Below the pieces are notes generated by a model. That model did not search any database. It saw only the letters and a program-made list of their open reading frames with translations, and had not been told where the DNA came from. The translations under genes were made by a program, and so were the position numbers. From contig CAZFPK010000011.1 in assembly GCA_964521025.1 (NCBI GenBank), positions 16,033 to 80,032 of the forward strand: a stretch of DNA of 64,000 nucleotides. The letters are read 5' to 3'. Each line of letters starts with the position of its first letter. Within the stretch, counting starts at the first letter, position 1. Positions 23,384 through 40,728 of the stretch are shown one piece after another. The DNA is from an uncultured Candidatus Cloacimonadota bacterium. Lineage in GTDB: Bacteria > Cloacimonadota > Cloacimonadia > Cloacimonadales > TCS61.

Positions 23384-23399
23384 TGGTACGATTATTGCA
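23384..23399 (+). promoter_or_regulatory. Sigma-54 (-24/-12) promoter of pilin-like gene 1
   Basis: TGGTACGATTATTGCA matches TGGYACG-N4-TTGCW with exact GG-N10-GC spacing. It lies 41 nt upstream of ATG 23439. Confidence 0.75.
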
Positions 23400-23438
23400 A
23401 AGTTTCCTCTCGGGTAGGTTTTATAAAAGGAGTTGATT

Positions 23439-23861
23439 ATGGGAACACAGCAAATCCTTTTAATTGTTATTGGTGTCATTGTTGTTGGAGTGTCTGTATC
23501 CGTCGGGATAACAATGTTTAACAATCAGTCGGCAGGTTCTAATCGGCAGGCTGTTATTCAAGACCTAAATACTTTTGCAGGAAATGCTTTAGCATATTAT
23601 AAAGCTCCATCAAGCTTTGGGGGAGGTTCTCGTTCATGGAGCAATATTGATAAATTGGGAATTTGGATCGGTCATAGTTTTAATCCTGATACTGATTCTT
23701 TATCAAATGAAAATGGTGAATTTGGGCTTTCTTATTCAGGGGACGATCTGACAATTGTCGGGATAGGTTTCGAAATTGGAAACGACGGTACAAATAAAGT
23801 TAAAGCAACAATCGTCGCGACAGGCAGTTCGGGAAACCTTGATCTAACGGTAAATAATTAG
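23439..23861 (+). CDS. Pilin-like protein 1 (non-canonical, leaderless type IV pilin-like)
   Basis: The ORF-track frame starts at TTG 23433; ATG 23439 follows AAAGGAG. The N-terminus is MGTQQILLIVIGVIVVGVSVSVGITMFNNQ followed by an amphipathic helix (NRQAVIQDLNTFAGNALAYY). It is a small ~140-aa protein and a paralog of the next two genes. Confidence 0.7.
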   Translation: MGTQQILLIVIGVIVVGVSVSVGITMFNNQSAGSNRQAVIQDLNTFAGNALAYYKAPSSFGGGSRSWSNIDKLGIWIGHSFNPDTDSLSNENGEFGLSYSGDDLTIVGIGFEIGNDGTNKVKATIVATGSSGNLDLTVNN

Positions 23862-24086
23862 TCGAAGCATAATTGAGAATACTGAAACAATTCATATTAT
23901 TTCATATTATGCATGAATGATTACATAATAATTGAACATTTATTCTATAATTAATAGCAAATCTTAAATTACATATACAGCGAAACTCGACAATCCAAAC
24001 TGGAAGAATTCCATAATATAATACTTTTAGAACACTTCTTACCAATTGATTGATGCACTCATAAAAAGTTAAAAAATTCTTATAAC

Positions 24087-24161
24087 TGTCATCTTGAGCG
24101 TGGTCGAAAAATCATTTGTACCAACATTTTATGAGATTCATCGACTACGCTCAGAATGACA
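24087..24161. repeat. Palindromic intergenic repeat element (TGTCATYYTGAGCGTRGTCGA family)
   Basis: tgtcatcttgagcgtggtcgaaaaatc ... gattcatcgactacgctcagaatgaca are imperfect inverted arms. Related copies or half-copies occur at 45039-45156, 53461-53524 and 58890-58925. Confidence 0.65.
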
Positions 24162-24383
24162 TAAAATGACTTTTTACGAAACCATCATAATTATAATTGA
24201 GATTAAATTCTTAAGATGGTAATTTTCTTCAAAATCAGAATAATCTTACGATTAGATCAGGGCTGTCATAAATTTATGATACCAGAATCTAATTTTATTA
24301 TAGTTAAATGAAGATTTTATTATATTTCTAACCTTTTGGAAATCAAATAGATAAGACCTTATTCTGAATTATTGTAAAGTGCT

Positions 24384-24399
24384 TGGTTCATAGATTGCT
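24384..24399 (+). promoter_or_regulatory. Sigma-54 (-24/-12) promoter of pilin-like gene 2
   Basis: TGGTTCATAGATTGCT has GG-N10-GC spacing identical to the consensus. It lies 71 nt upstream of ATG 24469. Confidence 0.7.
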
Positions 24400-24460
24400 T
24401 AATTTACCATTTTGTATCGCAGAGAAGCGATAAAAAAACGAAATCTATTTCTAAAAAAAG

Positions 24461-24893
24461 GAGGAGAAATGGGAACACAACAAATCTTGCTCATTGTATT
24501 GAGCGTAATCATCGTAGGAATCGCAGTTGCTGTTGGTATTTCTATGTTTAACAGTCAGGCAGTTAATGCAAATCGTCAGGCGATCGTATCTGATATGAAC
24601 AATTTCGGAGCTCAGGCAATGGCTTATTACAGAAGTCCGGCAAGTCATGGAGGAGGAGCCGGTACCTGGACTCTCGATGATGTTGGTCAATGGTTAGGTT
24701 ATAATTATGATCCGGATGGTGATTCACTTTATACTGATAACGGAACATTCCACTTATCTGTTAATGGTGATGATTTCGAAATCAATGGTATGGGAACAGA
24801 AACAGGAAATGATGGAACCAATCCGGTTGAAGCAACTGCCACTGTAACCGGTGCGACTGGTGCAATTTCCACTGTGATCGACAACTAAAGAAA
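24461..24893 (+). repeat. 433-bp perfect direct repeat, copy A (pilin gene with RBS)
   Basis: It is identical by eye to 25289..25721. The ORF track gives identical proteins on both strands. The flanks diverge immediately outside. Confidence 0.85.
24469..24888 (+). CDS. Pilin-like protein 2 (139 aa), identical to copy 3
   Basis: The ORF-track frame starts at 24412; ATG 24469 follows AAAGGAGGAG. The N-terminus is MGTQQILLIVLSVIIVGIAVAVGISMFNSQ. Confidence 0.75.
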   Translation: MGTQQILLIVLSVIIVGIAVAVGISMFNSQAVNANRQAIVSDMNNFGAQAMAYYRSPASHGGGAGTWTLDDVGQWLGYNYDPDGDSLYTDNGTFHLSVNGDDFEINGMGTETGNDGTNPVEATATVTGATGAISTVIDN

Positions 24894-24961
24894 CAAGATG
24901 TAAAGTTAAATCGAAATCTGAAGGAGATCATTCTGATTTCCATGGTAGTTGTATTTTTTTG

Positions 24962-25076
24962 AAAGTGTTTTGAAAAGGCGAATTTTAGGGAATTATTAGC
25001 AAGGTTAAAAGTATCGTATATTTAACTTTAATAATTCCTTTTAAAAATTTAACAACTTTTTAAAACACTTTTTTTA
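24962..25076 (+). terminator. Long composite hairpin (~110 nt) followed by a T-run between the two identical pilin copies; possible terminator or attenuator
   Basis: The outer arms are aaagtgttttgaaaa / tttttaaaacacttt, the middle arms ggaattatta / taataattcc and the inner arms gttaaa / tttaac, followed by ttttttat. Confidence 0.45.
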
Positions 25077-25288
25077 TATTATTAAGATTAAATTAATTAG
25101 ATGGTAATTTTCCATATCACAAAATAATTTTACGATTAGTTCCGGACTGTCATAAATTTATTATACCAACATTAAATGTGTCATTAATTTATGACAATTA
25201 TTTTCTAATTTTATTAATTATTAGGACCTAAATTCAGCACTATTAAAAAGATTTTTTCTTATATTTTATCTAACTCTTTGAAAATTAA

Positions 25289-25721
25289 GAGGAGAAATGG
25301 GAACACAACAAATCTTGCTCATTGTATTGAGCGTAATCATCGTAGGAATCGCAGTTGCTGTTGGTATTTCTATGTTTAACAGTCAGGCAGTTAATGCAAA
25401 TCGTCAGGCGATCGTATCTGATATGAACAATTTCGGAGCTCAGGCAATGGCTTATTACAGAAGTCCGGCAAGTCATGGAGGAGGAGCCGGTACCTGGACT
25501 CTCGATGATGTTGGTCAATGGTTAGGTTATAATTATGATCCGGATGGTGATTCACTTTATACTGATAACGGAACATTCCACTTATCTGTTAATGGTGATG
25601 ATTTCGAAATCAATGGTATGGGAACAGAAACAGGAAATGATGGAACCAATCCGGTTGAAGCAACTGCCACTGTAACCGGTGCGACTGGTGCAATTTCCAC
25701 TGTGATCGACAACTAAAGAAA
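25289..25721 (+). repeat. 433-bp perfect direct repeat, copy B
   Basis: See copy A. Confidence 0.85.
25297..25716 (+). CDS. Pilin-like protein 3 (139 aa), identical to copy 2
   Basis: RBS GAGGAG precedes ATG 25297. The protein string is identical to the 24469 gene. Confidence 0.75.
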   Translation: MGTQQILLIVLSVIIVGIAVAVGISMFNSQAVNANRQAIVSDMNNFGAQAMAYYRSPASHGGGAGTWTLDDVGQWLGYNYDPDGDSLYTDNGTFHLSVNGDDFEINGMGTETGNDGTNPVEATATVTGATGAISTVIDN

Positions 25722-25734
25722 ACAAAAATTGAAA

Positions 25735-25768
25735 AAAAGAGGGAGACACAACCGGTCTCCCTTTTTTC
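25735..25768 (+). terminator. Rho-independent terminator after pilin copy 3
   Basis: aaaaaagagggagacacaaccggtctcccttttttc has the stem gggagac/gtctccc followed by a T6 run. Confidence 0.8.
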
Positions 25769-25935
25769 ACTTAAACAAGAGTTCTGAAAACTGAGTTATT
25801 TCTGTAAAATAACTGAATTTCTCTCATCTTTTTCTTTATATTTTTTTAATTATTGAGATTGTTCACAAAAGATTTTATAGAAAGACTCCATGATCATTTT
25901 CAAAAAAATATCAGAACTCTTGAAGTCAGGTAAAT

Positions 25936-27279
25936 ATGTTAAAAGAATTTTTTTATTCCGGTGTATCGCAATTTGGTAAACCCGTGCAAGGGGTTGTTTT
26001 AGCATATAGCAGCTCCAAGGCGAAACAACTCGTTCATCAACTCGAAGAAAAACATAAATTCAAAGTAAAAAATATAATACCCAAAAAAATATTTCTCTAT
26101 ACAATTAAACTTCCTAATGGAAAAAAAATAACTCGCAAACAAACAGCATTTACCAAGAAAGATCTTGCTAATGCCTTAAATAAAATGGGTTACGCAAATG
26201 CAAAGATTCAGCCTGCTTTATTCGATTTCAAGTTCAGACCATCCTTTGCCAGCATTTTGATGTTTGTGAATCTTAGTTCATTCATGCTTAAAGAAAAAAT
26301 GAGTTATGATAAAATTTTAAGGATGTTGGCTGAAGAAGAATCGAATGCAACTTTAAAAGAAACACTGAAAAATATTGAAGGAGATTTGAAAAAAGGGAAA
26401 GAAGGAACAGAAGTTTTCTCCAGATATATCGATGTATTTGGTAAATTTCCTGCTTATATGCTTGGATTAGCAACAAAAAGCGGTAATATGGCAGAAGTTT
26501 ATGATGCTACAGCCAAATTCATGGAACGGGATATGGAATACAGGAAAAGTATTAAACAAGCATTGCTTTCTCCTCTCCTCACAATTATTGCTATGGTTTC
26601 AGCCGTGTTATATTATGTGATATCTATCTTCCCGGCAACTGCGAGATTATTTGTGAAATTTGGCATGGAATTACCACCGTTAACAGATGCAACTTTAAAA
26701 CTAAGCGCTTATTTAGGAGCAAATTGGTGGTGGATGTTTTTGGTAGTAATTATTCCCATGGGAATTATTGCTTTATGGTGGAGAACAAAAAAAGGTCGAG
26801 TTTGGAGAGATCATTTCATTATAAAACTGCCTGTAATCGGTCATCTTTTGCACAAATCCAGCATTGAGATTTTTTTCAGAGTTTTTTCCGCAGTATATGC
26901 AGGTGCGGATAATAACATCGAAACTTTACAGGCATCTGCGGAAGCCTGCCGTAACGGATACATTGAAAAAAAAGTGAAAGAAATAACAATTCCTTCTATG
27001 TTGACCAAAGGTGATACTCTGGTTAGTGCTTTAGCACAAGCAAAAGTCTTTAATAGAACGACTTTAAGCAGACTAAAAACAGGTTCTGAAACAGGGAATG
27101 TTTTATCTGCTGCTAAACAGATATCTTCCTTTTACGAAAAAGAGACAACCTATAAACTTCAAAACATCATTCAATCCATACAGATGTTTGTCGGAGCATT
27201 TATCGCTATTGTTATAACCGCTCTGACAATTGTTTCGGCAGAAATTGCCATGGTCTCACCGACAGGACCTGGTATGTAA
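25936..27279 (+). CDS. pilC: Type IV pilus/T2SS inner-membrane platform protein (GspF/PilC family)
   Basis: 447 aa with two T2SSF-like repeats and three TM segments (LLSPLLTIIAMVSAVLYYVISIF, WWMFLVVIIPMGIIALWW, FVGAFIAIVITALTIV). It lies immediately upstream of the GspE-like ATPase. Confidence 0.75.
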   Translation: MLKEFFYSGVSQFGKPVQGVVLAYSSSKAKQLVHQLEEKHKFKVKNIIPKKIFLYTIKLPNGKKITRKQTAFTKKDLANALNKMGYANAKIQPALFDFKFRPSFASILMFVNLSSFMLKEKMSYDKILRMLAEEESNATLKETLKNIEGDLKKGKEGTEVFSRYIDVFGKFPAYMLGLATKSGNMAEVYDATAKFMERDMEYRKSIKQALLSPLLTIIAMVSAVLYYVISIFPATARLFVKFGMELPPLTDATLKLSAYLGANWWWMFLVVIIPMGIIALWWRTKKGRVWRDHFIIKLPVIGHLLHKSSIEIFFRVFSAVYAGADNNIETLQASAEACRNGYIEKKVKEITIPSMLTKGDTLVSALAQAKVFNRTTLSRLKTGSETGNVLSAAKQISSFYEKETTYKLQNIIQSIQMFVGAFIAIVITALTIVSAEIAMVSPTGPGM

Positions 27280-27293
27280 TTTTCGGAGTTAAA

Positions 27294-29075
27294 GTGTTAA
27301 GAAAATCAAGATTTGGACAATTATTAGTTGAAAGAGGTATTATCGATAAACCAACTCTCGATAAAGCCCTCCTTTATCAGGCTGATGAGGATCCGTCCAA
27401 TCCAAGAATGCTGGGAGATATCCTGGCTTCTGATTTTAAAATAGACCATGATAAAATATTTAGTTTGGTAGCTGACCTTTATGCTTTTAGAACCGTCGAG
27501 ATCGAACCTGAAAAATTTGAAGAAAAAAGAATAACCTATATCAATGATATATTCTCAAAATTCCACGATGAATTCTTAAACAAGTTATTGTTCAAAAAAA
27601 TTGTCCCCTTTAAAGTTCAAAAAAACAGAAAAAACTCTCTCCTGATGTTAGCAGCTAATCCTACCGATAGTCTCGTAGAAGAAATCCCTAAATTTTCCGA
27701 ATTCAAAAAATATGAGGTTGCGTATTGTCGTCTCGAATCGATCCAGGCTCTGATAAATATCATTGCTCCCCAGAAAAACGAATTCCTGGAATTGTTAGAA
27801 GAAGCTGCAGGACAAATGCAGGAAGTTGCTGACATCGATGAGAATGAAATCGATGAATTTGCTTTAGACGAGGAAATCAATAAAAGCCTTCTGGTTAATC
27901 TTTATGAAGGATGCTTGATCGAAGCGGTTCGCAAGGGATCAAGCGATGTTCATATCATCCCATTTCAGCATTCGTGTGTAGATATCATTTTTAGGATAGA
28001 TGGAAATCTGCATCGCTGGCACAGACAGGAAAATACTTCGCCTGAAGCAATGGCAGCCGTGGTCAAAGATAGAGCTTCCGGAATCGATAGATTTGAAAGA
28101 GGTACTGCTCAAGACGGATTTGCACAGAGAGCCGTTGACGGTCATTTGATCAGGTTCAGAATATCTATCATACCGATTGTATCTTCAGAATTTGAAAGAA
28201 GATTTGAGAGTATTGTTATCAGGATCGTCGATGATAGAAATGTTATTACCGATCTGAAAAAACTCGGGTTACAAATACAAGCTGAGAAAGATTTTGTCAA
28301 AGCCATCACTAAATCAAAAGGAATCGTCCTTTTAACCGGACCAACCGGCAGCGGAAAAAGTACAACTTTGATGGCTGCTTTTCACCATACTATCGATCCA
28401 ACCAAAAATGTCCTCACTTGCGAAGATCCGGTTGAATATGTTATTAAAGGCGCCAGACAATTAAAGATCGGTCGTAAGTTCAGTTTCGAGCTGGCGATCA
28501 GGTCTATTCTCAGGCATGATCCGGATATAGTTATGGTCGGTGAAATCAGAGATAAAATTACGGCAGATGTTGCCATTAAATTAGCAAATACCGGTCATCT
28601 GACTTTTTCTACGCTTCACACAAATGATGCTCCCAGTGCTATTTCCCGTTTATTTAAAATTGGAGTCGAACCCTTTCTCCTGGCTTATGCAATGAATCTT
28701 ATCGTAGCTCAGAGATTAGTGAGAAGACTTTGCCCTGAATGTAAAGTTCCTCTTACAAAAGAAAAATACCAATCTGCACTCGATATCGGACTGACCGAAG
28801 ATGATCTGAAATCAAAATTGATTTATGAGGCTGGTCCGGGTTGTAAAAAATGTTTAGATGGTTATAAAGGAAGAGTGAATATTTGCGAAGCTCTCTATTT
28901 TACACCTGAGATCAGAAAAGCAATCGTCGAATCCGGGGAAGAGATCGATGAAGAAAATATCAGGCAAATTGCCGAAAAGCAGGGAATGTTATCCCTGCTG
29001 CAATCCGGTCTGGATAGAGTCAGGAATTCCCTGACTACAATATCGGAAGTTACTTATGCAACTTCGGGAGATTAA
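27294..29075 (+). CDS. pilB: Pilus/T2SS assembly ATPase (GspE/PilB family)
   Basis: GTG start. The N-terminal T2SSE_N-like region is FGQLLVERGIIDKPTLDKAL. Walker A is GPTGSGKSTT, Walker B is DPDIVMVGEIRD and the His box is TGHLTFSTLHTNDA. The tetracysteine motif is CPECK...CKKC. Confidence 0.9.
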   Translation: MLRKSRFGQLLVERGIIDKPTLDKALLYQADEDPSNPRMLGDILASDFKIDHDKIFSLVADLYAFRTVEIEPEKFEEKRITYINDIFSKFHDEFLNKLLFKKIVPFKVQKNRKNSLLMLAANPTDSLVEEIPKFSEFKKYEVAYCRLESIQALINIIAPQKNEFLELLEEAAGQMQEVADIDENEIDEFALDEEINKSLLVNLYEGCLIEAVRKGSSDVHIIPFQHSCVDIIFRIDGNLHRWHRQENTSPEAMAAVVKDRASGIDRFERGTAQDGFAQRAVDGHLIRFRISIIPIVSSEFERRFESIVIRIVDDRNVITDLKKLGLQIQAEKDFVKAITKSKGIVLLTGPTGSGKSTTLMAAFHHTIDPTKNVLTCEDPVEYVIKGARQLKIGRKFSFELAIRSILRHDPDIVMVGEIRDKITADVAIKLANTGHLTFSTLHTNDAPSAISRLFKIGVEPFLLAYAMNLIVAQRLVRRLCPECKVPLTKEKYQSALDIGLTEDDLKSKLIYEAGPGCKKCLDGYKGRVNICEALYFTPEIRKAIVESGEEIDEENIRQIAEKQGMLSLLQSGLDRVRNSLTTISEVTYATSGD

Positions 29076-29078
29076 ATT

Positions 29079-29513
29079 ATGGGCAACGGTCAAATGCTAC
29101 AAATCCTGCTTGCTTTAATACTTTTTTCAACTACTCTAATTACTATTTACAATAGTTTATATGACCAGGCTGAATTTGTTTATAGCGGAATGTATTATAT
29201 CCAGGGACAGAAAATTGTTGATAAATATTTAATGAAGCTCGAGTCTGAACTTATCGGCGATGTTAGTACCTATCTGGATATCTATTCTGATTATCACGAT
29301 TCTACTACAACGATGAATGTAAATACTGTTACTTATAATATTCATATCACAACTGTTTTTTGTGACTCGACAGGAATGATACATTATCCTTATTCTCCAT
29401 ATGAACCATATCAAAAAGTTAATTTGAGCATTTGGTGCAAAGCAACTATTACTGATACTTTATATATTGGAACGGATACAAATCCAATAAGTGAAGTTTT
29501 TAAAGATTTGTAA
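29079..29513 (+). CDS. Minor pilin-like protein
   Basis: The N-terminus is MGNGQMLQILLALILFSTTLITIYNSL (same M-G-x3-[IVM]-L plus hydrophobic helix as the major pilin-like genes). The start is 3 nt after the pilB stop. Confidence 0.6.
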   Translation: MGNGQMLQILLALILFSTTLITIYNSLYDQAEFVYSGMYYIQGQKIVDKYLMKLESELIGDVSTYLDIYSDYHDSTTTMNVNTVTYNIHITTVFCDSTGMIHYPYSPYEPYQKVNLSIWCKATITDTLYIGTDTNPISEVFKDL

Positions 29514-29525
29514 AAAAAGGAAATC

Positions 29526-30125
29526 ATGGGAACAACAGGTGTTTTAGAATCGATAGGTGCTTTGATAATCGGAGGAATATTTCTGGTTATGATATTCAAT
29601 GCTTACTCAAATGTCAATGTTATGAGTCATAATATCAACATGCAGGTAACAGCTAATCAAATATCGGAAAGTGTTTCTTCTCTGCTGGGTTCTGTCTATC
29701 TTTCAAAGGTTGGTGCAGGTGTTGATACTTCGGCTGTTGCTATCACATTAGCTAAAAAAAGGAGATTTAAATTTTTAGGAAAAATCAATCCTGATGATGA
29801 AACCGATAGCGAGATATTCATATATCAATCAGGATATAATGAGACTTACGGTGGTTATGCTTTAAGAGTTAAAATTAACGGGTCTGTGGATGCCGGTCCT
29901 TTCTGGATGTCCACAAAGATTGTTTTCAAATATTATGATGTAAATGAGAATCAATTTACATATTCCGAACTAAATAATGCGGCAAATAGAGATTTAGTTC
30001 GCTCGGTTAGAATCCAGTTCGAATTATTTCAGAATCCTCTGTCATTGGATGGTCAACCAGCCGAGATCAAACAAAAAATGGTATTCTGGAAATATTTCAA
30101 GAATCTATATTTAGGTAGTTCTTAA
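29526..30125 (+). CDS. Minor pilin-like protein
   Basis: The N-terminus is MGTTGVLESIGALIIGGIFLVMIFNAY. An RBS aaggaaa is present and the gene is in the operon. Confidence 0.6.
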   Translation: MGTTGVLESIGALIIGGIFLVMIFNAYSNVNVMSHNINMQVTANQISESVSSLLGSVYLSKVGAGVDTSAVAITLAKKRRFKFLGKINPDDETDSEIFIYQSGYNETYGGYALRVKINGSVDAGPFWMSTKIVFKYYDVNENQFTYSELNNAANRDLVRSVRIQFELFQNPLSLDGQPAEIKQKMVFWKYFKNLYLGSS

Positions 30126-30190
30126 GAAGGTTTTGGTAAGTATGATGTTTGAGGGAGACTTTAATCTGATAAAAATAATAGGAGGTTATC

Positions 30191-31366
30191 ATGAGTAAAA
30201 TCATTGTTTTATCAGTGGTTGTGGCTGCAGCGGTTTTTGCTTCTGTTGCCGTAACAGTCCAGAAAAGAACATCAGAAGTGTCGGATGTGATTTCCGCAGA
30301 TCTCAACGAAATTCAAGGAAGAGCATGTGGAAATCTGGCAATGTCTTATGCTATTAAACAAGTACAGGACGGGTTTATTCCTTTTACTCAAGAGGGTTAT
30401 TTGGAAACATTCCCCAATTTTAATGTGTTAAGCGGTAGTATCGATAGTATCCGGTATACTACCAATGCAGCTCAAGATACGATCCAGATAATTTCTTATG
30501 TGAATACATCTTATATGGGTCAGGATATTTTTCATAAAAGTCAGGCTGGTATTGGTTTACAAGGTGGTTCTCTTCCCGGAATTGTCGCACACTGGTTGAT
30601 GGATGATGATTATTGGAGCGGTACGAATAATGATGTTATCGACGGCACAAATTTTCATCATCATGGAATTGCTTATAGTGGTGCTCATACTGTTGAAGAC
30701 TCACCCGGTTATCCATTCGATAAAGTCGGTAAATTCGATGGTTATAACGACTATGTTGAAATGCCTGTCGGTGTTTGTGACAAATATAATGATGAGATGA
30801 CCGTGACTGTAGGTGTAAAAATCGAAAGACTACCTCTTTTTGATATCGATTGGGGAATCCTGGCTACTGAATACCGGACTACTGATTGGGGTTTTGTTCC
30901 CGTCTGGAGTATGAGAGCTTTTACTTTTAGATTTTTGTGGTGGTATTATGTCAGGTGTTACCTTTTTGTGTTCACTGATAATGGTATAAAATATACCGGA
31001 ATTCAAAAATGCGGAAGTCAAGGTCAAATTTACAAATGGCACAGTGTTGCTGCCATTTATGACGGCAGTACTTCCAATCCTACTATTACTGTAAAAGTCG
31101 CTCATACGGGTTTAAAGGGTACAACTACGATCGGAGAAGGTAATCAATGGACAGGAAGAAATCCTGATAATATTATCTCGGTTGGTGGAAGGGACGGGAT
31201 TATTCCGCCGTTAGCCTGTTTCGACGGTAAATTAGCCGGAGTGGGTATTTGGGATCGAGCTTTGACCGATTTGGAAATCGATGATCTGTTCGATGAATAT
31301 GCTCAAGGGAATACACCTGTTAATGCAGATGGAATTACCATCAATATAGTTTATTGGAGCGAGTAA
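30191..31366 (+). CDS. Pilin-like protein with a C-terminal LamG/concanavalin-like lectin domain (candidate tip adhesin)
   Basis: The N-terminus is MSKIIVLSVVVAAAVFASVAVTV. LamG_3-like motifs are HWLMDDD...GKFDGYNDYVEMP...WHSVAAIYDG...FDGKLAGVGIWDRALTDLEIDDLF. RBS AGGAGG. Confidence 0.65.
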   Translation: MSKIIVLSVVVAAAVFASVAVTVQKRTSEVSDVISADLNEIQGRACGNLAMSYAIKQVQDGFIPFTQEGYLETFPNFNVLSGSIDSIRYTTNAAQDTIQIISYVNTSYMGQDIFHKSQAGIGLQGGSLPGIVAHWLMDDDYWSGTNNDVIDGTNFHHHGIAYSGAHTVEDSPGYPFDKVGKFDGYNDYVEMPVGVCDKYNDEMTVTVGVKIERLPLFDIDWGILATEYRTTDWGFVPVWSMRAFTFRFLWWYYVRCYLFVFTDNGIKYTGIQKCGSQGQIYKWHSVAAIYDGSTSNPTITVKVAHTGLKGTTTIGEGNQWTGRNPDNIISVGGRDGIIPPLACFDGKLAGVGIWDRALTDLEIDDLFDEYAQGNTPVNADGITINIVYWSE

Positions 31367-31522: not shown

Positions 31523-32458
31523 ATGGACAAAAAAATATATGATAATGAAAGAATAATGAAATTCTGGTGGGGAAAAATCCGATGGTTTATGGTTGTCGTA
31601 CTTTTTGCAATTGGAATATTACAAATGCAGAAAAGTCCGCAATCTTTCCCGGCTGTTATTTTTATAGCAGTATTTGCCGGAACACTGGTTTTGAATATTT
31701 TATTCCATCTCAATATCATCAGAATCAACAACCTGATCGCTGCGATCCAAATAACTCTCGATATTGTTTTCTCAACTATTGTCGTTCACTTGACAGGAGG
31801 ATTAGAAAGTTCATTCGTCTGGATCTATCTATTAGGTGTAATAACTGCCAGTTTATCGATCGAAAAAACAGGGGGATTCATCGCTTCATTGATCAGTTCT
31901 CTTTCTCTTCTGGGACTGATCTTGCTTTATAATTATAAATGGCTGATCCCGATGAGTGATGCGGAACATATTGTTGACTATCCTGTACAGACAATTTTTC
32001 TCATTTCTTATACAGGATTGATGATAGCAGTTGCTTTTATGGCTAATTATTTTAGTGACCTGGTCAAAAGACTGAATTCTAATAAATTTATTAACCAGGA
32101 AAAAATAAAGAAACTGAATGAGGACAAATCAAAATTAGAAACCTTTAAAATCGAACAAGAAAGAAAAATTAAAGAAAACAATCAGCTAATTAAGGCAGCT
32201 ACTTCAGTAGCAGTTATCGATCATAAACTGAATAATCACCTGACTATTATTTCATTAGCAGTGAAGAGAATAAAAAGAGCAGGAATGGAATATAAAGATG
32301 AAAAATTAGAAAAATACGGTAATCAAATGACAGATGCACTGAATAAAATCGAAGAAGTTTTGAAAAGTGTGCAAAAGTTGAAACAATTAAAAGTAATCAA
32401 AGAAGCTCGAAAAAAAGAGCAAGGATTATCAGATGAAGAAGAATATTTTAATAGTTGA
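31523..32458 (+). CDS. Polytopic membrane protein with a coiled coil and an H-box-like helix but no ATPase domain
   Basis: About 6 TM segments, then a Lys/Glu-rich coiled coil, then AVIDHKLNNHLTIISLAVKRI (dHp-like). The protein ends 60 aa later. It overlaps the downstream REC gene by 26 nt. Confidence 0.55.
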   Translation: MDKKIYDNERIMKFWWGKIRWFMVVVLFAIGILQMQKSPQSFPAVIFIAVFAGTLVLNILFHLNIIRINNLIAAIQITLDIVFSTIVVHLTGGLESSFVWIYLLGVITASLSIEKTGGFIASLISSLSLLGLILLYNYKWLIPMSDAEHIVDYPVQTIFLISYTGLMIAVAFMANYFSDLVKRLNSNKFINQEKIKKLNEDKSKLETFKIEQERKIKENNQLIKAATSVAVIDHKLNNHLTIISLAVKRIKRAGMEYKDEKLEKYGNQMTDALNKIEEVLKSVQKLKQLKVIKEARKKEQGLSDEEEYFNS

Positions 32459-33287
32459 TGACGAACCAAGTGTAAGAGATATCTGCAAAGATATTCTCGA
32501 AGATGAGGGTTATCGAGTAACTGTTGCAGTCGATGGTCAGGATGCTATCGATAAAATGGATTATTTTGATTTTGATCTTTTTCTGGTAGATTTGTCTATG
32601 CCCAGGATAAGCGGTCTGGAATTAATGAAAGTCATCAAAAATAAACAACCTTTTGCTGTTATTATCATCTTGACCGGATTTGCCAGTGTCCATGGAGCTG
32701 TCAAAGCAATCCATGAAGGAGCTTTCCATTACATCGCCAAACCTACTGATCCTGATGAACTAATCTATGTTGTGAAAAAAGGATTGCAATATTCCGATGA
32801 CCTATATGGTCCCTTGCAAAATGCATTCGAACCCGCAACTGATAATGAATTAAAGCGAAAACCGATTATCCTGAATGGTTTCAACCAGAAAGACAGGGAT
32901 GATTTTATTGAATTAGGAAATTTCCGAAAATATGATCTCGGAATGCATATACCGATCAGTGAAGAAATCGAAGGGCAGATCATTTTAATAGAAGACGGAG
33001 AAGTTTCAGTCTGGCTGAATAATACGATCATCGATTATCTCGAGAAAATGGACTCTTTCGGAGAAGAAACATTGATCTTAAAACAACCTTCTATCACAAA
33101 ATTGAGAGCTGAAACGCTTGTTAAGATCCGGCATTTTAACAGGCAGAAATTACTTGATTTCTTTTCTTATAAAGGAGAAAAACTTTTTAAGAGATTTATG
33201 ATAAATCTGATCAATAATTCATTTTATAAATGGCGAAAATCCGTGCAAAGAATAGTTATGTTAAAACTTTCAACCGGTGAAAAATAA
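32433..33287 (+). CDS. Response regulator receiver fused to a cyclic-nucleotide-binding-like (Crp-type beta-barrel) domain
   Basis: REC is ILIVDDEPSVRD...LFLVDLSMPRISG...IILTGF...KP. The C-terminal GQIILIEDGEVSVWLN...FGEETLIL...AETLVKIRHF resembles cNMP-binding folds. Confidence 0.65.
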   Translation: MKKNILIVDDEPSVRDICKDILEDEGYRVTVAVDGQDAIDKMDYFDFDLFLVDLSMPRISGLELMKVIKNKQPFAVIIILTGFASVHGAVKAIHEGAFHYIAKPTDPDELIYVVKKGLQYSDDLYGPLQNAFEPATDNELKRKPIILNGFNQKDRDDFIELGNFRKYDLGMHIPISEEIEGQIILIEDGEVSVWLNNTIIDYLEKMDSFGEETLILKQPSITKLRAETLVKIRHFNRQKLLDFFSYKGEKLFKRFMINLINNSFYKWRKSVQRIVMLKLSTGEK

Positions 33288-33454
33288 AAAAAATCTATTT
33301 TTATCGATGAAAATATTTTATAATTTTATATATTATTTAATAAGTATCAAGGTGAAAAAACAAACTGAAATGTATATTAAATTCAGATTAAACAAAATAG
33401 ATGTTGCCTTAAATTTCAAGAAAATTAATTTTGACTCTGAATATTGGGTGAGCA

Positions 33455-34666
33455 ATGAATTTGTCATTTATTGAAGAATTACAGGTAAATCTGTCCGATT
33501 TTATTACAGGTCTGAACCGTTTTCAGCGAATCGATAAATTATTATATGAAAATGTAAACTGGAGGAAAGAAACTCACGAACATTTCAGATACCTGCTTTC
33601 TTATATGAAAAAAAAAAATGCTTCTGATATGGATGTCGGAGGACCAGGAACTAATGGAAAAATCTGGCTAAGGATTTATGGAAACAAAACACCTTGTGAT
33701 GATATGCCCCTTTATCATGATGATGAAATTATTGTTCTTCTGTTAAATGCTTTAAATGAAACACAGAAAAAAATCCTGTTTGAAAAGAAAAATATAGATT
33801 TCTCCGTAGAATTGTTATTCGACGGTGAGGAGCGAGCTAATCGTTTCAGAGGTGATGTATATTTTGACAGAAATTGTATCGCGGCAAATTTTAGAAAAAT
33901 AGACCAAAAAGTTCGAAATATTAAACGGTTAAGTTTCCCGGATAATATTACGAAAAGATTAAATCTTTATTATGAAAAATCCGGTTTATACCTGATAACA
34001 GGTATTTCGGGTTCAGGTAAAAGTGCTACTCTCGACTCTATTGTCGATATGAACAATCGTACCAATAAAGCACATATCGTGATTATCGGGGATCCTATTG
34101 AATTTATTCATGAATCTGTTAAATGTATTATCAGGCATAGAAATGTGGGTGACGATGTCTTGAGTTTTAGAGAGGGAACAATTCAAGCATTAAGACAGGA
34201 TCCGGATATAATTATCGTGGGTGAGATGAGAGATCCTGAAACCATCGATACAGTTATTGAAGTTACCGATAGCGGTCATAAAGTATATACAACATTACAC
34301 ACCAGCTCGGCAATCGACAGTATTCACAGGATAATTGGGGAATTTCAACCAACTGAACAGGACAGGATAAGAATGAGATTGGCTGATGTTCTCAAAGTAT
34401 GTATTTCCCAGAAATTGATTCCGGATAATAAAGGAAAATTGATCCTATCCAAAGAGATTCTTTCTGTGGATAGTTCCGTGAAAGCTGCAATCAGGAATAA
34501 AAATATCGGTGAGATATATCAAATGATGGTAGAAGGAAAAAGAAAGGGAATGATGACTCTTGAACAGGATCTTCTAAATTTATATAAAAAAAATGTGATT
34601 TCCAGAGATACGCTATTAAATTATTCAAATAACAGGAAAATAATGTCTCAAATGCTGCAAATTTAA
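33455..34666 (+). CDS. pilT: Twitching-motility-type retraction ATPase (PilT/PilU family)
   Basis: Walker A is GISGSGKSATL. Also present are DPDIIIVGEMRD, SGHKVYTTLHTSSA and an AIRN-type motif (AAIRNKNIGEIYQMM). It has a ~150-aa N-terminal extension. Confidence 0.85.
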   Translation: MNLSFIEELQVNLSDFITGLNRFQRIDKLLYENVNWRKETHEHFRYLLSYMKKKNASDMDVGGPGTNGKIWLRIYGNKTPCDDMPLYHDDEIIVLLLNALNETQKKILFEKKNIDFSVELLFDGEERANRFRGDVYFDRNCIAANFRKIDQKVRNIKRLSFPDNITKRLNLYYEKSGLYLITGISGSGKSATLDSIVDMNNRTNKAHIVIIGDPIEFIHESVKCIIRHRNVGDDVLSFREGTIQALRQDPDIIIVGEMRDPETIDTVIEVTDSGHKVYTTLHTSSAIDSIHRIIGEFQPTEQDRIRMRLADVLKVCISQKLIPDNKGKLILSKEILSVDSSVKAAIRNKNIGEIYQMMVEGKRKGMMTLEQDLLNLYKKNVISRDTLLNYSNNRKIMSQMLQI

Positions 34667-34683
34667 ACGAGAATTGGTGAATT

Positions 34684-37020: not shown

Positions 37021-37887
37021 ATGGAATATGCTGTAAGAAATACGATTGTTTTAGCGGTTCTGCTTTTGCTGGTAATTGGCGGTTCATACTGGAGGAACAG
37101 AGGATCAAATGTGATCTTACAGGAAAAAACAACGACTTATAATGATCTCAGAGAGACCGTGGACGGACTAAAAAGAGCAAATCCGGATCTGGTAAATGAA
37201 GATATGATCATTTCTGCATTAGAACGCATGGAAGCATCAGCCAGGAAAAATGTAAAAATCATTCTTAAAGAGGATAATCCAACGATCACTTATAAGTATC
37301 TGGTCGATATTGTAGATCGCTATTGTCCGGGATTGGTCTTTAATTTTGTCGTTGAAAAATCCGGGCAACAGGAAATATTTAACTACAATTCCTACAAGAT
37401 CGATGGAAGTGCCAGTTTCGGTGATTTTTATAGATTTGCCGATCACCTGGAAAATGAAGGTCCTTTACTGACGATCGAATCTATTCTCATCAAGGAAAAA
37501 TATAATGCGGTTTCAGACACTATTCAATTCCATCTCTCGTTCAAATCTTATTTTGAGGATAACGGTATTCCTTATGAAGATTTATCTATGAAAAATCTCA
37601 AGCATCTCAATTTCAATTATAATCCTTTTCGGACCAGAATTCACGGACCTTTGAGATATTCGGGACAGGATGAAGCAATAATCCTGGAAAAATCCGTTAT
37701 GATCGGATTAACTCCTGAAAAAGTTTTTATGCGTGATCATCGTGGTAAATTCAGGATCCTTTTACCGGGTGACAAGATCGTCTTTGGAAATTTAACTTCG
37801 ATTAATTGGGAGGAGCAATATGCATCCTTTACGATTAATAAGACCGGGGTAAACGAAGAAAAAATAATATATTTAAAAAAGGAATAA
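37021..37887 (+). CDS. Single-pass membrane protein in the PilO/PilP position
   Basis: ATG directly abuts the upstream TAA. The TM segment is NTIVLAVLLLLVIGGSYW. The assignment rests on synteny only. Confidence 0.45.
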   Translation: MEYAVRNTIVLAVLLLLVIGGSYWRNRGSNVILQEKTTTYNDLRETVDGLKRANPDLVNEDMIISALERMEASARKNVKIILKEDNPTITYKYLVDIVDRYCPGLVFNFVVEKSGQQEIFNYNSYKIDGSASFGDFYRFADHLENEGPLLTIESILIKEKYNAVSDTIQFHLSFKSYFEDNGIPYEDLSMKNLKHLNFNYNPFRTRIHGPLRYSGQDEAIILEKSVMIGLTPEKVFMRDHRGKFRILLPGDKIVFGNLTSINWEEQYASFTINKTGVNEEKIIYLKKE

Positions 37888-37889
37888 TT

Positions 37890-39071
37890 ATGAAAAAAAT
37901 ATCACTATTATTAATTATTTTTATTGTAGGCAGTAGTTTAATAACGCAAATCTCAAAAATTTCGAGTAAGGGATTGGTTTCCATTCCCAAGGATACAAAA
38001 TTTGTTGAGGTCGTAAATACGCTGGAAGTATTATCTCAACAATATGCAGGCAAAAAGATCATCAATTCCAGTATTTTTAATCAGGAGATCGGTGTTCCTA
38101 TCAAGGAAATTCACTGGCTGGAAGCTTTAAATCTGATCACAAGTTATAACAACCTGATTTTGGAGGAATTACCCGGTGCTTTTATTATCAAAGACTTTAC
38201 TGAAGAAGCCGAAGCAGAAGAGGAAGAAAAAAAGGTATCTCCCGATACCAAACAGATCAGGATCAGTTCGATATTCTTCAAAGCAGATAAATCATTTCTG
38301 AACAGTATCGGGATCGATTGGACAACTCTGTATAGAGGAAAAGTCGATGTTGACCTGGGTTTTCTGGGAGCATCCAATGTCTCGGATGAACTATTTAAAG
38401 CTACAGCTACTCATAAAATAGAATCTGCTTCAGCATCTCTCGACCTGAATACTCTCCTGAAAATCATCGAAGCAAAACAAAAAGGTTCGATCATTGCTCG
38501 TCCGAATATTGTTGTCATTTCCGGCAAGGAAGGATTTATCCAGGTTGGTGAAGATTTCTCCATTAAAACCACAGATGAAGACGGTAATATTTTTGATCGC
38601 TTTTTCTCTACCGGAATTATTATGGAAGTTCTTCCTGAAGTGGTTGAAAAAGACGGAGAGGAAGCGATTTATTTGAAGGCTAAAGTCGAGAAAAGTGCTG
38701 CTACTCCCGGTGAACTCAGCACGATCATCGCAAAAAGTACATCTACGACCGAAATTCTGTTATTCGATGGTGAAGAAACTGTAATTGCCGGACTTTACAG
38801 CACAGACGATACAAAGATCAGATCAGGAATACCAATTTTGAAAGATCTTCCCTGGTGGGTTTTCGGGATTCGTTATCTAACCGGTTATAATCGAACGGAA
38901 TCCAAAGTAGGTGAAATGATCATCGTGATCAAAGCAGAAATCGTCGAATCTTTACAGAATAGAATGACTAAAGCGATAACAACAAAGGAAAAAGTTAAAG
39001 AACTCAGAGATTCGAGATCAGAAATAAAAAATTATTTTGAAGAAAATGGAAAGGATATATTCAATGAATAA
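37890..39071 (+). CDS. pilQ: Outer-membrane secretin (PilQ/GspD family), unusually short (393 aa)
   Basis: Signal peptide. Secretin-domain motifs are ARPNIVVISGKEGFIQVGEDFSI...GIIMEVLPEV...TTEILLFDGEETVIAGL...SGIPILKDLPWWVFGIRYL...EMIIVIKAEIV. Confidence 0.8.
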   Translation: MKKISLLLIIFIVGSSLITQISKISSKGLVSIPKDTKFVEVVNTLEVLSQQYAGKKIINSSIFNQEIGVPIKEIHWLEALNLITSYNNLILEELPGAFIIKDFTEEAEAEEEEKKVSPDTKQIRISSIFFKADKSFLNSIGIDWTTLYRGKVDVDLGFLGASNVSDELFKATATHKIESASASLDLNTLLKIIEAKQKGSIIARPNIVVISGKEGFIQVGEDFSIKTTDEDGNIFDRFFSTGIIMEVLPEVVEKDGEEAIYLKAKVEKSAATPGELSTIIAKSTSTTEILLFDGEETVIAGLYSTDDTKIRSGIPILKDLPWWVFGIRYLTGYNRTESKVGEMIIVIKAEIVESLQNRMTKAITTKEKVKELRDSRSEIKNYFEENGKDIFNE

Positions 39072-40728
39072 AAATAAAATAAATTCTATTTTTGTTTCGA
39101 TATCTTCACTGATATTGCTCACATTCTTGATCAGTATTTGCAGTTGTGACTTAAAACTTACAGAGGGTCAACCTTCAGAAGATATCCCTCCCGATTCTGC
39201 CGAGGTTTTGTTATTTGCACCTTCGGATGTGCTGATCGAACAGCTCTCTGCCAATAGTCTCAAATTGAATTGGACAGATAATTCCTGGAATGAACAGGGA
39301 TTCAAAATCGATAAAAAAGTCGGAACAGCATCCTGGCTAACTTCTTACGGAATTGTCGATACGAACATGACTCTCTGGTATGATCAAAATGCTGAAAATA
39401 ATATTCTTAAATACCGTGTTTACGCCTATCTTGGCGAAGCAAAATCAGATTATGCGGAATCCGAAGATTTTCAAAATCTAATTCCCTCTCCCACTTACCT
39501 GGTCCTCACGATAATGGATAATACAAAAATCAAACTGACCTGGGAAGATGTATGTCAAACTGAAGATGGTTATCATATTGATAAGAAGATCGGAGGTCTG
39601 GAATGGGTAGAATCTTATTCTGTTCTCGACAGTAATGTTACTTCGTATTTAGATGAGATCGACCAACCATGCGGTACATTTTCGTATCGTGTTCGGGCAT
39701 TTCAAGGTGAGAATCTATCAGGCTACAGTGATATTGAAACGATCAACATCAACCTGGAGTTGACGGGTTCAATCGGTAGCGGAGGTAGCTTCGCTGCTAA
39801 TGATGTTTTTATCTCGGAAACAACAAACTGGTGGTTGTTTGCGGCAGATCATTATGCTGGTTTAACTATCATTGACGCTTCTGATCCCAGTTTTAACAGC
39901 GGTCTTGATTATGCTTCCTTTAATCTTGGCGGTTTACCTGATAGAACACTCTCTGTTTTTGTTATTGGAGTTTTGGCTTATGTTGCTACACATTCCGGTT
40001 TGGATGAACACGGTTGGCTTAATATAATCGATATGAGTGAATTCATGTTTGTTTACCCGAGAGAACTACCGGAAGATATCCCTATTGTCGGAATGTGTCC
40101 GATCCAGGCAAATCCGGATGATACATATATTCCTAAAGATATTTTTGTCGAAGGTGATTTTGCTTACATCGCCAATGAATATAACGGACTCTCCATTTAC
40201 GATGTTTCTAATTATTCTAATCCTTTTTTCGTCGGAAATTGCAGTACAAATGGAGATGCCAGGCATATCCATGTTAAAAATGATCTGGCTTATATTGCTA
40301 ATGGTTTATCAGGAATTGTTGTGGTCGATGTTTCGGATAGAGAAAATCCTGTTGTGATTGAAACTTATCCGACAACAGGACTTTCTAATGAGATTTCTGC
40401 TTTAGGAGATTTTATTTTTATTGCAGACGGGGAGAATGGTTTGAAAATTATCGAGCGTTCAACAGGAGACATTCAATACATCGATACGGATGGATTTGCT
40501 TACAGCGTTTCCGTACAGGGACAGGACAGGTTCGAGGAAGACCATGTTTACCTGGCAGACAAAGAAAACGGTCTGTTTGTGATAGATATTTCAGATATTT
40601 ATGAACCGTATATTCTGGGAATCCTGGAAATGAATACGGAACCGGTTACAATCCATAAATTCTTCCAGAGCAGTTATGCGTTTGTAGCGGACAATTATGG
40701 AGTAAGAACAGTTCAGGTTGCTCCGTAA
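39064..40728 (+). CDS. Lipoprotein with two FN3 domains and LVIVD-repeat beta-propeller
   Basis: ATG 39064 overlaps the secretin stop (ATGAATAA). The lipobox-like sequence is LISICSC. FN3 regions are LKLNWTDNSWNEQGFKIDKK and IKLTWEDVCQTEDGYHIDKK. The repeated AY[IV]A...NGL.[IV][IV]D[IV]S motif is typical of LVIVD repeats. Confidence 0.7.
   Translation: MNKNKINSIFVSISSLILLTFLISICSCDLKLTEGQPSEDIPPDSAEVLLFAPSDVLIEQLSANSLKLNWTDNSWNEQGFKIDKKVGTASWLTSYGIVDTNMTLWYDQNAENNILKYRVYAYLGEAKSDYAESEDFQNLIPSPTYLVLTIMDNTKIKLTWEDVCQTEDGYHIDKKIGGLEWVESYSVLDSNVTSYLDEIDQPCGTFSYRVRAFQGENLSGYSDIETININLELTGSIGSGGSFAANDVFISETTNWWLFAADHYAGLTIIDASDPSFNSGLDYASFNLGGLPDRTLSVFVIGVLAYVATHSGLDEHGWLNIIDMSEFMFVYPRELPEDIPIVGMCPIQANPDDTYIPKDIFVEGDFAYIANEYNGLSIYDVSNYSNPFFVGNCSTNGDARHIHVKNDLAYIANGLSGIVVVDVSDRENPVVIETYPTTGLSNEISALGDFIFIADGENGLKIIERSTGDIQYIDTDGFAYSVSVQGQDRFEEDHVYLADKENGLFVIDISDIYEPYILGILEMNTEPVTIHKFFQSSYAFVADNYGVRTVQVAP

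Follow-up and report, generated by a model that had tools for sequence, protein, structure and literature searches.

Subunits with a class III signal peptide, which a dedicated peptidase of the A24 family removes, are the defining feature of type IV filaments, that is pili, the pseudopili of type II secretion systems (T2SS), competence pili and archaella. For extraction from the membrane and packing of the fibre, Glu5 of the mature subunit is regarded as essential. Here, we investigated a pilus locus of a Cloacimonadota bacterium, located at about 17.0–40.7 kb of a 64,000-nucleotide stretch of DNA (referred to as the window; all positions are counted from its first nucleotide). The locus encodes three pilin-like proteins beginning with MGTQQ, a PilB/PilT pair of ATPases, a PilC platform, a PilM-PilN fusion protein and a PilQ-type secretin. 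As set out below, it probably specifies a leaderless type IVa pilus machine that builds a retractile surface filament from the MGTQQ subunits.

Pilus genes have been noted in this phylum before at the level of annotation. A type IV pilus major pilin, assembly and retraction ATPases, a platform and an alignment protein were stated for Cloacimonadota genomes (bioRxiv 10.1101/2021.10.08.463351), and 'the entire operon' was stated for Ca. Digestoria delfossei together with speculation on pili that conduct electricity (e-pili) as well as direct interspecies electron transfer (DIET) (PMC13082233), the latter being proposed also in PMC8892533. None of these papers on Cloacimonadota pili mentions a missing leader, the Gln4-Gln5 pair, a PilM-PilN-SPOR-TPR fusion or the layout of sigma-54 promoters and upstream activating sequences (UAS), and our literature searches for leaderless pilins and for Cloacimonetes type IV filaments found nothing. 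The original prediction, made from the sequence of the window, had named the locus as a candidate for an undescribed variant of a secretion or pilus system. This does not hold for the presence of pilus genes as such. As far as can be told it does hold for their anatomy, namely leaderless subunits without Glu5, an alignment complex of two polypeptides that contains cell-wall-binding domains, a secretin of short length and an associated LVIVD protein.

Results

The pilin-like proteins start at Met1 without a leader

Related loci were collected by a scan of one genome per species with the two most conserved peptides of the pilin family, which yielded 79 loci. In these loci and the window together, a GGAG-type Shine-Dalgarno sequence was found 4–16 nt before the ATG of Met1 in 87/87 MGTQQ-type genes, and in 80 of the 87 the stretch from the upstream in-frame stop to Met1 is free of alternative start codons. 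For the third pilin-like gene of the window (copy 3) a leader is not possible, because an in-frame stop lies six codons upstream with no start codon in between. On sequence grounds, the start of the MGTQQ genes at Met1 and the lack of a leader are not in doubt.

All three pilin-like genes of the window begin with MGTQQ, and paralogue 1 is 53% identical to copies 2 and 3. Across the family, 89 of 90 aligned members begin with Met-Gly and the same proportion (89/90) have Gln at positions 4 and 5, and for about 138 of the 150 best family representatives the match to the family profile starts at their own residue 1. A divergent subfamily (P0254, P0305) begins with MQQILL and has no Gly. The original prediction had described the filament subunits as non-canonical, and this was confirmed: no N_methyl or other pilin hidden Markov model (HMM) matched them at E≤10, and a regular-expression scan for the prepilin signature G[FMILV][ST]L[IL]E found no open reading frame (ORF) in the window or in about 1.1 Mb of the 79 related loci. 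Two closer equations with canonical pilins were not kept. Gln5 as the strict positional equivalent of Glu5 was rejected as a firm statement, given the MQQILL subfamily and the registers of the HMM and hhalign alignments, which differ by 1–3 residues; the hhalign alignment of the family with E. coli GspG (25 residues, 2.5% probability) was not used.

The AlphaFold model of copy 3 has the shape of a lollipop, with a helix of 53 residues (3–55) followed by a five-stranded sheet. The best Foldseek matches among known pilins were A. baumannii PilA 5ihj (probability 0.82, E 0.27, query TM-score 0.46), 8tob and 8v7p. In a search of the family profile against the sequences of the Protein Data Bank (PDB), the N-terminal helix of Geopilin was matched weakly (E 0.076), next to an otherwise unrelated match to RavD. 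The helix is probably inserted with its N-terminus inside and its C-terminus outside, as a pilin helix is, since the homologue P0319 carries a Ser/Thr kinase N-terminal to helix and head domain.

The number and arrangement of the pilin-like genes vary. The DNA of copies 2 and 3 (24453–24888 and 25281–25716) is 99–100% identical from the ribosome-binding site on, whereas the regions upstream share only short blocks; recent duplication, gene conversion or an effect of assembly could account for this. Other genomes contain up to six tandem paralogues (L031), and orphan copies away from the machine were seen in seven loci (L001, L017, L019, L023, L032, L056 and L057). The spacer between pilin genes 1 and 2 of the window contains a short palindromic repeat, GTCATCTTGAGCGTGGTCGA, with an inverted partner 34 nt away (24088–24160). 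The repeat recurs with 2 mismatches in the intergenic region 58904–58923, with none expected by chance, and may be an element of the repetitive extragenic palindrome (REP) or miniature inverted-repeat transposable element (MITE) type.

Motors, platform and secretin belong to a type IVa machine

The core ATPases, the platform and the secretin had been called clearly recognisable in the original prediction, and their Pfam and NCBIfam scores (Table 1) bear this out. For the long ATPase the top model was PilB (TIGR02538) with 394 bits, at an equivalog cut-off of 676, versus 363 bits for the GspE model. Compared with solved structures, it matched Geobacter PilB 6olj over its full length with 296 bits, Myxococcus PilB with 280, GspE with 243 and BfpD with 108 bits, and models of FlaI and the TadA family gave only 44–49 bits. 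PilT matched its solved counterparts with 186–222 bits (Aquifex 222, Geobacter 210, Pseudomonas also within this range), and its gene is kept in the operon across loci. The best solved relative of the secretin is M. xanthus PilQ (3jc8, E 2e-10). The PilB/PilT pair, PilM and PilN and the PilQ-like secretin thus identify a type IVa machine, as opposed to a T2SS, Tad, type IVb or archaeal one, and we hold this classification with high confidence.

The N-terminus of PilB (residues 1–50, 27294–27440; RFGQLLVERGIIDKPTLDKALLYQ) gave a sub-threshold match of 22.8 bits to the MshE-type cyclic di-GMP motif NF053729, and a distant PilB homologue (L082) has a weak match to the MshEN Pfam model. This sequence feature suggests control of extension by cyclic di-GMP.

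Assembly of a surface filament is not the only job that such a machine could have. Its main task might instead be to secrete proteins through a short T2SS-like pseudopilus, to take up DNA, or to transfer electrons by e-pili, as the published proposals of DIET for Cloacimonadota imply (PMC8892533, PMC13082233). The PilM-PilN fusion is indeed GspL-like in architecture, with a Foldseek match of its PilM-like part to GspL 4pht_X (E 1.3e-4), and the secretin is short. We nevertheless find these alternatives quite unlikely: a dedicated PilT is retained in the operon, ATPase and secretin are nearer to PilB and PilQ than to GspE and GspD, neither GspC nor GspM was matched by Pfam or NCBIfam among the window proteins, and the lineage exports proteins by the type IX secretion system (T9SS). 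With regard to e-pili, the window pilin contains 7.9% aromatic residues and has an aromatic-free stretch of 36 residues. This falls short of the thresholds of the e-pilin heuristic and does not favour an e-pilin.

The FN3-like and LVIVD protein encoded after the secretin is probably a lipoprotein, judging by the Cys in its predicted signal peptide. In L081, L083 and L084 the secretin is likewise followed by a homologue; in L082 and L085 it is not. In the former three loci, the LVIVD gene is followed by genes for large Beta_helix/CarboxypepD_reg proteins with T9SS sorting domains. Its neighbour in the window is instead dapF, encoded on the opposite strand, so that the association of T9SS cargo with the pilus locus varies.

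Three minor-pilin-like proteins are leaderless as well

The three minor-pilin-like proteins (mp1, mp2 and mp3) encoded downstream of pilB are also leaderless. A Gln or Glu occupies position 4 or 5 of mp1 in 24/25 homologues. Its alignment by hhalign with the N-terminal helix of E. coli GspI had an E-value of 6.5e-4 and a probability of 28%, and when mp1 of the Cloacimonas clade (MNLMEMVLAL) is set against mature E. coli GspI (FTLLEVLLAM), the two align at offset 0 with Met1 paired to Phe1 and Glu5 to Glu5. In mp2, an Asp or Glu is found at position 6 in 23/25 homologues (Glu8 in the window protein); in a weak hhalign alignment to GspJ the acidic residue faces Glu5. No acidic residue is present near the N-terminus of mp3, whose homologues begin with MG[KR]. 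The match of mp3 to Laminin_G_3 (E 1.4e-5) falls just under the cut-off and is stronger in homologues.

Filament subunits and their maturation

Like a classical pilA, the MGTQQ gene is located directly upstream of pilC-pilB. It has a sigma-54 promoter and a terminator of its own and occurs as multiple paralogues and tandem copies. We consider it likely that the MGTQQ protein is the filament subunit. Alternatively, the MGTQQ proteins might be abundant membrane-anchored surface or sensor proteins, or cargo, of the same regulon, the true pilins being canonical prepilins that are encoded elsewhere and processed by PilD. Such a role would agree with the occurrence of the head domain in non-pilin architectures, with the lack of pilin HMM matches and of significant fold matches and with the presence of PilD in the phylum. 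In a survey of 558 Cloacimonadota genomes, pilA was called in 13 genomes by eggNOG-mapper and in 203 by GhostKOALA (K02650), gspG in about 1–2% and canonical gsp genes in about 1–6% (PMC13082233). The K02650 calls might represent the canonical pilins, but they may themselves be members of the present family, two of which carry the JGI names 'PilE' and 'PulG'. Moreover, pilA was assigned in 0% of the clade 1 and clade 3 genomes of this survey even though PilB, PilC, PilT, PilM and PilQ are near-universal there, and no canonical G|FxxxE ORF was found in the window or in the ~1.1 Mb flanking the 79 loci. If the true pilins were elsewhere, it would be hard to account for the position, which is like that of pilA, for the sigma-54 promoter and for the three minor-pilin-like genes that are conserved together with them. 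Overall, this alternative appears very unlikely.

The absence of a prepilin peptidase, noted for the window in the original prediction, was reproduced there and seen also at the related loci, but does not extend to the phylum. No Peptidase_A24 domain was detected by Pfam among the large ORFs of the window, and with E. coli GspO as the tblastn query neither the window nor the 10 kb around each of the 79 loci gave a match. In the phylum, K02654 (PilD) was assigned in 475 (eggNOG-mapper) or 451 (GhostKOALA) of the 558 genomes, i.e. ~81–85% (PMC13082233 Table S11). This PilD homologue either acts on the pilin-like proteins, by cutting after Gly2 or by methylation only, or has other substrates.

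If it cuts them, machine and subunits would be the same, but the subunits would be prepilins with a leader of two residues. The unlinked PilD would cleave between Met-Gly and Thr and perhaps N-methylate the new end, so that the mechanism would be canonical and only the leader length and the missing Glu5 would be unusual. The MGTQQ-type proteins would be obvious clients of a PilD that is so widespread while canonical pilA and gspG are rarely annotated, and both the conservation of Gly2 in 89/90 major subunits and the MG[KR] start of the mp3 homologues are in line with such a cut. Cleavage after Gly-1 fails as a rule across the subunits, however, because the MQQILL subfamily lacks the Gly, and at position 2 mp1 has G, N, T or A while mp2 has mostly S or N. 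In addition, the offset-0 alignment of mp1 with mature GspI and the lack of PilD near any of the 79 loci speak against it, and a characterised prepilin whose leader consists of two uncharged residues is not known to us. Overall, a short leader appears unlikely. That the major subunit is used without any proteolytic maturation is about evenly balanced, if not slightly short of that. The wider proposal of a type IVa pilus whose major and minor subunits are all 'born mature', and need no cleavage by a peptidase, with Gln in the major subunit taking the place of the otherwise near-universal Glu5, is possible but somewhat doubtful.

Several observations weigh against the leaderless filament that we propose. 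The six pilin-like proteins found no match to PF07963, TIGR02532 or other pilin models. In Foldseek, the pilin model had no significant match in the PDB (best E 0.1), so the claim of a pilin fold rests on the predicted shape only. The head domain is reused in other proteins: it follows a Ser/Thr kinase and a membrane helix in P0319, occurs as three tandem heads in P0331 and follows lipoprotein-like N-terminal domains in P0239, P0243 and P0342. Its fold is therefore not exclusive to filament subunits. No solved relative of mp1 was found by profile search against PDB sequences, and the 288-aa protein at the PilO/PilP position had no match in Pfam, NCBIfam or PDB sequences (in the alignment used for the PDB profile search, the row L036 was contaminated by an upstream receiver domain). 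Proteolytic processing is conceivable given the PilD homologue in 451–475 of the 558 genomes, and Gly2 is near-invariant as is Gly-1 in prepilins. Finally, no pili have been observed, and to our knowledge no member of the Cloacimonadota is in pure culture, the papers cited here describing only enrichments and metagenome-assembled genomes. The claim of a leaderless filament is purely computational at present, and the unexplained PilD homologue counts against it.

The alignment complex is probably condensed into two polypeptides

The original prediction had read the 778-aa protein encoded downstream of pilT as a PilM-PilN-SPOR-TPR fusion. This reading is strongly supported for PilM and TPR, moderately for PilN and weakly for SPOR. 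By sequence and AlphaFold model (pLDDT 78.6), the protein consists of an actin-like PilM domain (residues 1–345), the motif NLLP (355–358), a membrane helix (~368–392) that is part of a long helix, a coiled coil and ferredoxin-like domain reaching to residue 524, a disordered linker, a SPOR-like domain (573–648) with beta-alpha-beta-beta-alpha-beta topology and a YbgF-like TPR domain (654–777). Residues 1–345 matched PilM of P. aeruginosa (5eou), M. xanthus (3jc8_Ma) and T. thermophilus (2ych) in Foldseek with E-values of 4e-13 to 3e-9 and target-normalised TM-scores of 0.65–0.68. The N355-L-L-P358 motif, located between PilM fold and membrane helix, is nearly invariant in the family. In established PilM-PilN complexes, NLLP marks the N-terminal part of PilN to which PilM binds. 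A comparison of the family profile with M. xanthus PilN (3jc8_Na) was weak (E 0.031). The SPOR match of the window protein was sub-threshold (E 0.014), with precomputed SPOR matches present in some homologues, and the TPR domain matched the YbgF model (E 1e-18) and the YbgF/CpoB structures (target-normalised TM-score 0.87–0.89).

Residues 353–486 of the fusion also gave a weak NCBIfam match (E 2e-4) to Amuc_1101, a 'PilM-like pilus complex protein' of Akkermansia, and this may point to a connection with a further pilus-like cluster that is itself poorly understood.

The 288-aa bitopic protein encoded next would correspond to PilO/PilP according to its position and the pattern of its C-terminal sequence. 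With PilM and PilN fused and a single 288-aa protein at the PilO/PilP position, the alignment complex does depart from the textbook layout, as had been predicted.

The pilin array is under sigma-54 control

Sigma-54 control of the locus, proposed for the window in the original prediction, holds throughout the phylum. Scored as GG-N10-GC with at least 9 of 11 consensus positions, a -24/-12 element was found 39–98 nt upstream of 65 of the 85 pilin genes in the loci and the window, compared to 0.6% of shuffled upstream regions. The signal lies in this placement: a relaxed sigma-54 pattern was not above chance across the window (19 found versus 14.9 expected). Two such elements precede pilin genes 1 and 2 (Table 1). 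Reading of the sequence before copy 3 revealed only a GG...GC pair whose spacing is off by one, and since a properly spaced element is lacking, copy 3 may be transcribed by read-through or from another promoter. A scan for sigma-70-type promoters was not above chance (80 found, 68 expected) and was not used.

In the 400 nt upstream of the pilin genes, the palindrome TGT(C/A)AT-N6-ATGACA is enriched about 100-fold (0.52 vs 0.005 per kb). It is usually placed 195–250 nt before the ATG and often occurs in pairs 31 nt apart; the window contains it at 24264, 25148 and 25179. This layout would be expected of an enhancer for the adjacent NtrC-type activator. A strong hairpin ends the pilin array. The terminator tool placed it on the minus strand, but its stem lies between an A run and a T run and it can therefore act in both directions. 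From the sigma-54 and UAS layout and the hairpin it follows that the pilins form their own, highly regulated transcription unit.

The activator encoded by 21898–23331 is the PilR counterpart. It lies directly 5' of the pilin genes in many loci, with 44–68% identity, and the membrane kinase encoded before it would be the PilS counterpart by position. The hybrid kinase (17047–19476) is the first gene of this conserved regulatory block. A second pair of regulators, the PilS-type six-transmembrane (6TM) protein and the response regulator with cyclic nucleotide (cNMP)-binding-like output domain, is kept within the operon between minor subunits and PilT. On inspection, the coiled coil of the 6TM protein contains an H-box-like sequence, DHKLNNHLT. 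The pair may sense the pool of pilins in the membrane.

Extent and conservation of the locus

On re-reading of the plus strand by ORF calls and translation, all genes of the earlier listing were found at the given coordinates. The boundaries of the original prediction (23384–40728) were correct in content and too narrow on the 5' side: the unit starts with the two histidine kinases and the NtrC-type sigma-54 activator (17047–23331; 17.0–23.3 kb), which are syntenic with the pilin genes in many loci, and extends over about 17.0–40.7 kb (Table 1).

Table 1. Features of the pilus locus with their positions in the window and the basis of their assignment.
Feature	Position	Strand	Basis or remark
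Hybrid sensor histidine kinase (PAS, HisKA, HATPase_c, two receiver domains)	17047..19476	+	Pfam; 5' of the pilin genes in many related loci
Membrane sensor histidine kinase (PAS, HisKA, HATPase_c)	19614..21758	+	Pfam, synteny
NtrC-family sigma-54 activator (receiver, Sigma54_activat, HTH_8)	21898..23331	+	Pfam 227.7 bits
Sigma-54 -24/-12 element TGGTACgattaTTGCA	23384..23399	+	39 nt 5' of pilin gene 1
Pilin-like paralogue 1, 140 aa, starts MGTQQILLIV	23439..23861	+	Shine-Dalgarno AAGGAG just upstream
Palindrome TGTCATaaatttATGATA, candidate UAS for NtrC-type activator	24264..24281	+	~120 nt 5' of second sigma-54 element
Sigma-54 -24/-12 element TGGTTCatagaTTGCT	24384..24399	+	69 nt 5' of pilin gene 2
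Pilin-like copy 2, 139 aa, major type	24469..24888	+	
Two palindromes, TGTCATaaatttATTATA and perfect TGTCATtaatttATGACA, 31 nt apart, candidate UAS before copy 3	25148..25196	+	
Pilin-like copy 3, protein identical to copy 2	25297..25716	+	AlphaFold pLDDT 91.5
Intrinsic terminator ending the pilin array	25740..25770	+	G+C-rich hairpin, then T run
PilC/GspF platform	25936..27279	+	T2SSF 85.7 bits, two repeats; top NCBIfam model PilC
PilB-type extension ATPase	27294..29075	+	T2SSE 309 bits
mp1, minor-pilin-like, 144 aa, MGNGQMLQILLALILFST	29079..29513	+	
mp2, minor-pilin-like, 199 aa	29526..30125	+	
mp3, large minor-pilin-like, 391 aa, N-terminal membrane helix and LamG/concanavalin-like module	30191..31366	+	
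PilS-type 6TM membrane domain and coiled coil, no ATPase domain	31523..32458	+	6TM_PilS E 2e-9
Response regulator, cNMP-binding-like output domain	32433..33287	+	Response_reg and cNMP_binding (Pfam)
PilT retraction ATPase	33455..34666	+	TIGR01420 302 bits (cut-off 319)
PilM-PilN-SPOR-TPR fusion, 778 aa	34684..37020	+	AlphaFold, Foldseek, profiles
288-aa bitopic protein at PilO/PilP position	37021..37887	+	Conserved position
PilQ-type secretin, 393 aa, no AMIN domains detected	37890..39071	+	Secretin 90 bits
FN3-like and LVIVD beta-propeller protein, Cys-containing signal peptide	39037..40728	+	LVIVD x4 109.5 bits, weak fn3

The host belongs to the Cloacimonadota, a phylum across which the gene order is kept. 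By tblastn of the window proteins, the order kinase-kinase-NtrC-pilin(s)-PilC-PilB-mp1-mp2-mp3-6TM-response regulator-PilT-PilMN-PilO position-secretin was near-constant in the 79 loci (L001–L079) as far as the contigs reach. The same order was found in five additional contigs (L081–L085) that were reached via homologues of the 778-aa protein. The synteny check called for by the original prediction thus came out in favour of a conserved unit in 79+5 loci.

The 139-aa pilin-like protein has homologues in 794 clusters, and all named ones come from Candidatus Cloacimonetes/Cloacimonadota and are annotated 'hypothetical protein'. An exhaustive HMMER search enlarged the family to 1,842 clusters at 50% identity, and the divergent branch (query P0305) returned only Cloacimonadota names. 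Every family member with a named source belongs to the Cloacimonadota except for two loci titled Neomarinimicrobiota; the remaining 77 of the 79 loci are titled Cloacimonadota or unclassified. These two loci (L054 and L079) and a PilMN homologue (P0198) have the same gene order in records labelled Neomarinimicrobiota or Marinimicrobia. They represent either mis-binned Cloacimonadota contigs or an extension of the system to a neighbouring phylum of the Fibrobacterota-Chlorobiota-Bacteroidota (FCB) group.

Five window proteins carry a C-terminal T9SS sorting domain, in agreement with the guess in the original prediction that the host bears a T9SS. Two adjacent large cysteine peptidases of the C10 (streptopain-like) family are encoded at 4354–10216, each with an Inhibitor_I69 propeptide and the second also with a T9SS sorting domain. 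Further T9SS cargo is encoded at 13411–17008, 54870–55589 and 56280–58862. At 59011–63939 on the minus strand, we found a gene for a cytoplasmic sensor kinase of 1,642 aa with at least nine PAS and three GAF domains (counted as Pfam stretches) and a HisKA_2-type core.

Discussion

We propose the following mechanism for this machine. The 139-aa MGTQQ protein would be synthesized without a leader, its N-terminus already being the 'mature' end of a pilin with Gln4/Gln5 replacing Glu5. It would reside in the inner membrane with the N-terminus in the cytoplasm and the C-terminal part outside. PilC and PilB would extract the subunits into a helical fibre that leaves the cell via the short secretin and is pulled back by PilT. 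The three leaderless minor subunits may prime or cap the fibre, and the lectin-like LamG module of mp3 probably mediates adhesion. In the envelope, the alignment complex would be condensed into the PilM-PilN-SPOR-TPR protein and the protein at the PilO/PilP position, with the tie to the cell wall probably made by the SPOR and TPR domains and not by AMIN domains on the secretin. The kinase or kinases and the PilR-like activator would switch on the pilin array from the upstream palindromic enhancers, and the PilS-type 6TM protein together with the receiver/cNMP regulator may report the pool of pilins in the membrane.

If true, the MGTQQ proteins would be the first natural family of bacterial type IV pilins that is leaderless and independent of Glu5. 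Neither cleavage of a leader nor Glu5 would then be mechanistically obligatory, and the family would offer a natural system in which membrane orientation and subunit registration are achieved without either. Standard annotation misses these pilins, with pilA calls at 0% in two of the four Cloacimonadota clades, and the missed pilins bear on the arguments about e-pili and DIET in anaerobic digesters, a habitat in which the phylum is abundant. A different anchoring of the machine to the cell wall is suggested by the condensed alignment complex and the short secretin.

Of the described systems, the type IVa pili (T4aP) of Myxococcus xanthus, Geobacter and Pseudomonas aeruginosa share PilB, PilT, PilC, a PilQ-type secretin, the PilM fold and the NLLP motif of PilN with the Cloacimonadota locus. 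Further shared features are a major-subunit gene 5' of the assembly genes, a sigma-54 promoter, an adjoining NtrC-type activator and kinase and a PilS-type 6TM domain; pilA of Pseudomonas, Myxococcus and Geobacter is likewise regulated separately, by PilS/PilR and RpoN. Unlike in T4aP, the Cloacimonadota subunits have no class III signal peptide, Phe1 or Glu5 and carry Gln4-Gln5 instead. PilM and PilN form one polypeptide that is extended by SPOR-like and YbgF-like TPR domains, a single 288-aa protein stands where PilO and PilP would be, and the secretin of 393 aa has no AMIN domain. There are three minor subunits and not four or more, PilD is unlinked, and in many loci an LVIVD/FN3 protein follows the secretin.

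In GspL of the T2SS, a PilM-like cytoplasmic domain is joined via a membrane helix to a PilN-like periplasmic domain, as in the fusion described here. Further resemblances are mp3, which like GspK has no N-terminal acidic residue, and the weak hhalign alignments of mp1 and mp2 to the helices of GspI and GspJ. The locus differs from a T2SS in possessing PilT, in the higher scores of its ATPase and secretin against PilB and PilQ, and in the far better match of its actin-like domain to PilM (E 4e-13) than to GspL (E 1.3e-4).

Modular type IV pilins with a lectin or adhesive module are known, e.g. the minor pilins of Streptococcus sanguinis. With these, mp3 shares the N-terminal helix and a LamG/concanavalin-like module but not the class III signal peptide or Glu5; it also recalls tip subunits of the GspK/PilX type. 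Met is often the first residue of mature type IVb pilins, and Glu5 is commonly missing from archaeal pilins; in the assembled Cloacimonadota subunit, Met1 may likewise be the first residue. Type IVb and archaeal pilins, however, are still made with a leader that is cut by a dedicated A24 peptidase, and the motors of the locus are of type IVa, unlike the Tad, type IVb and archaeal ATPases.

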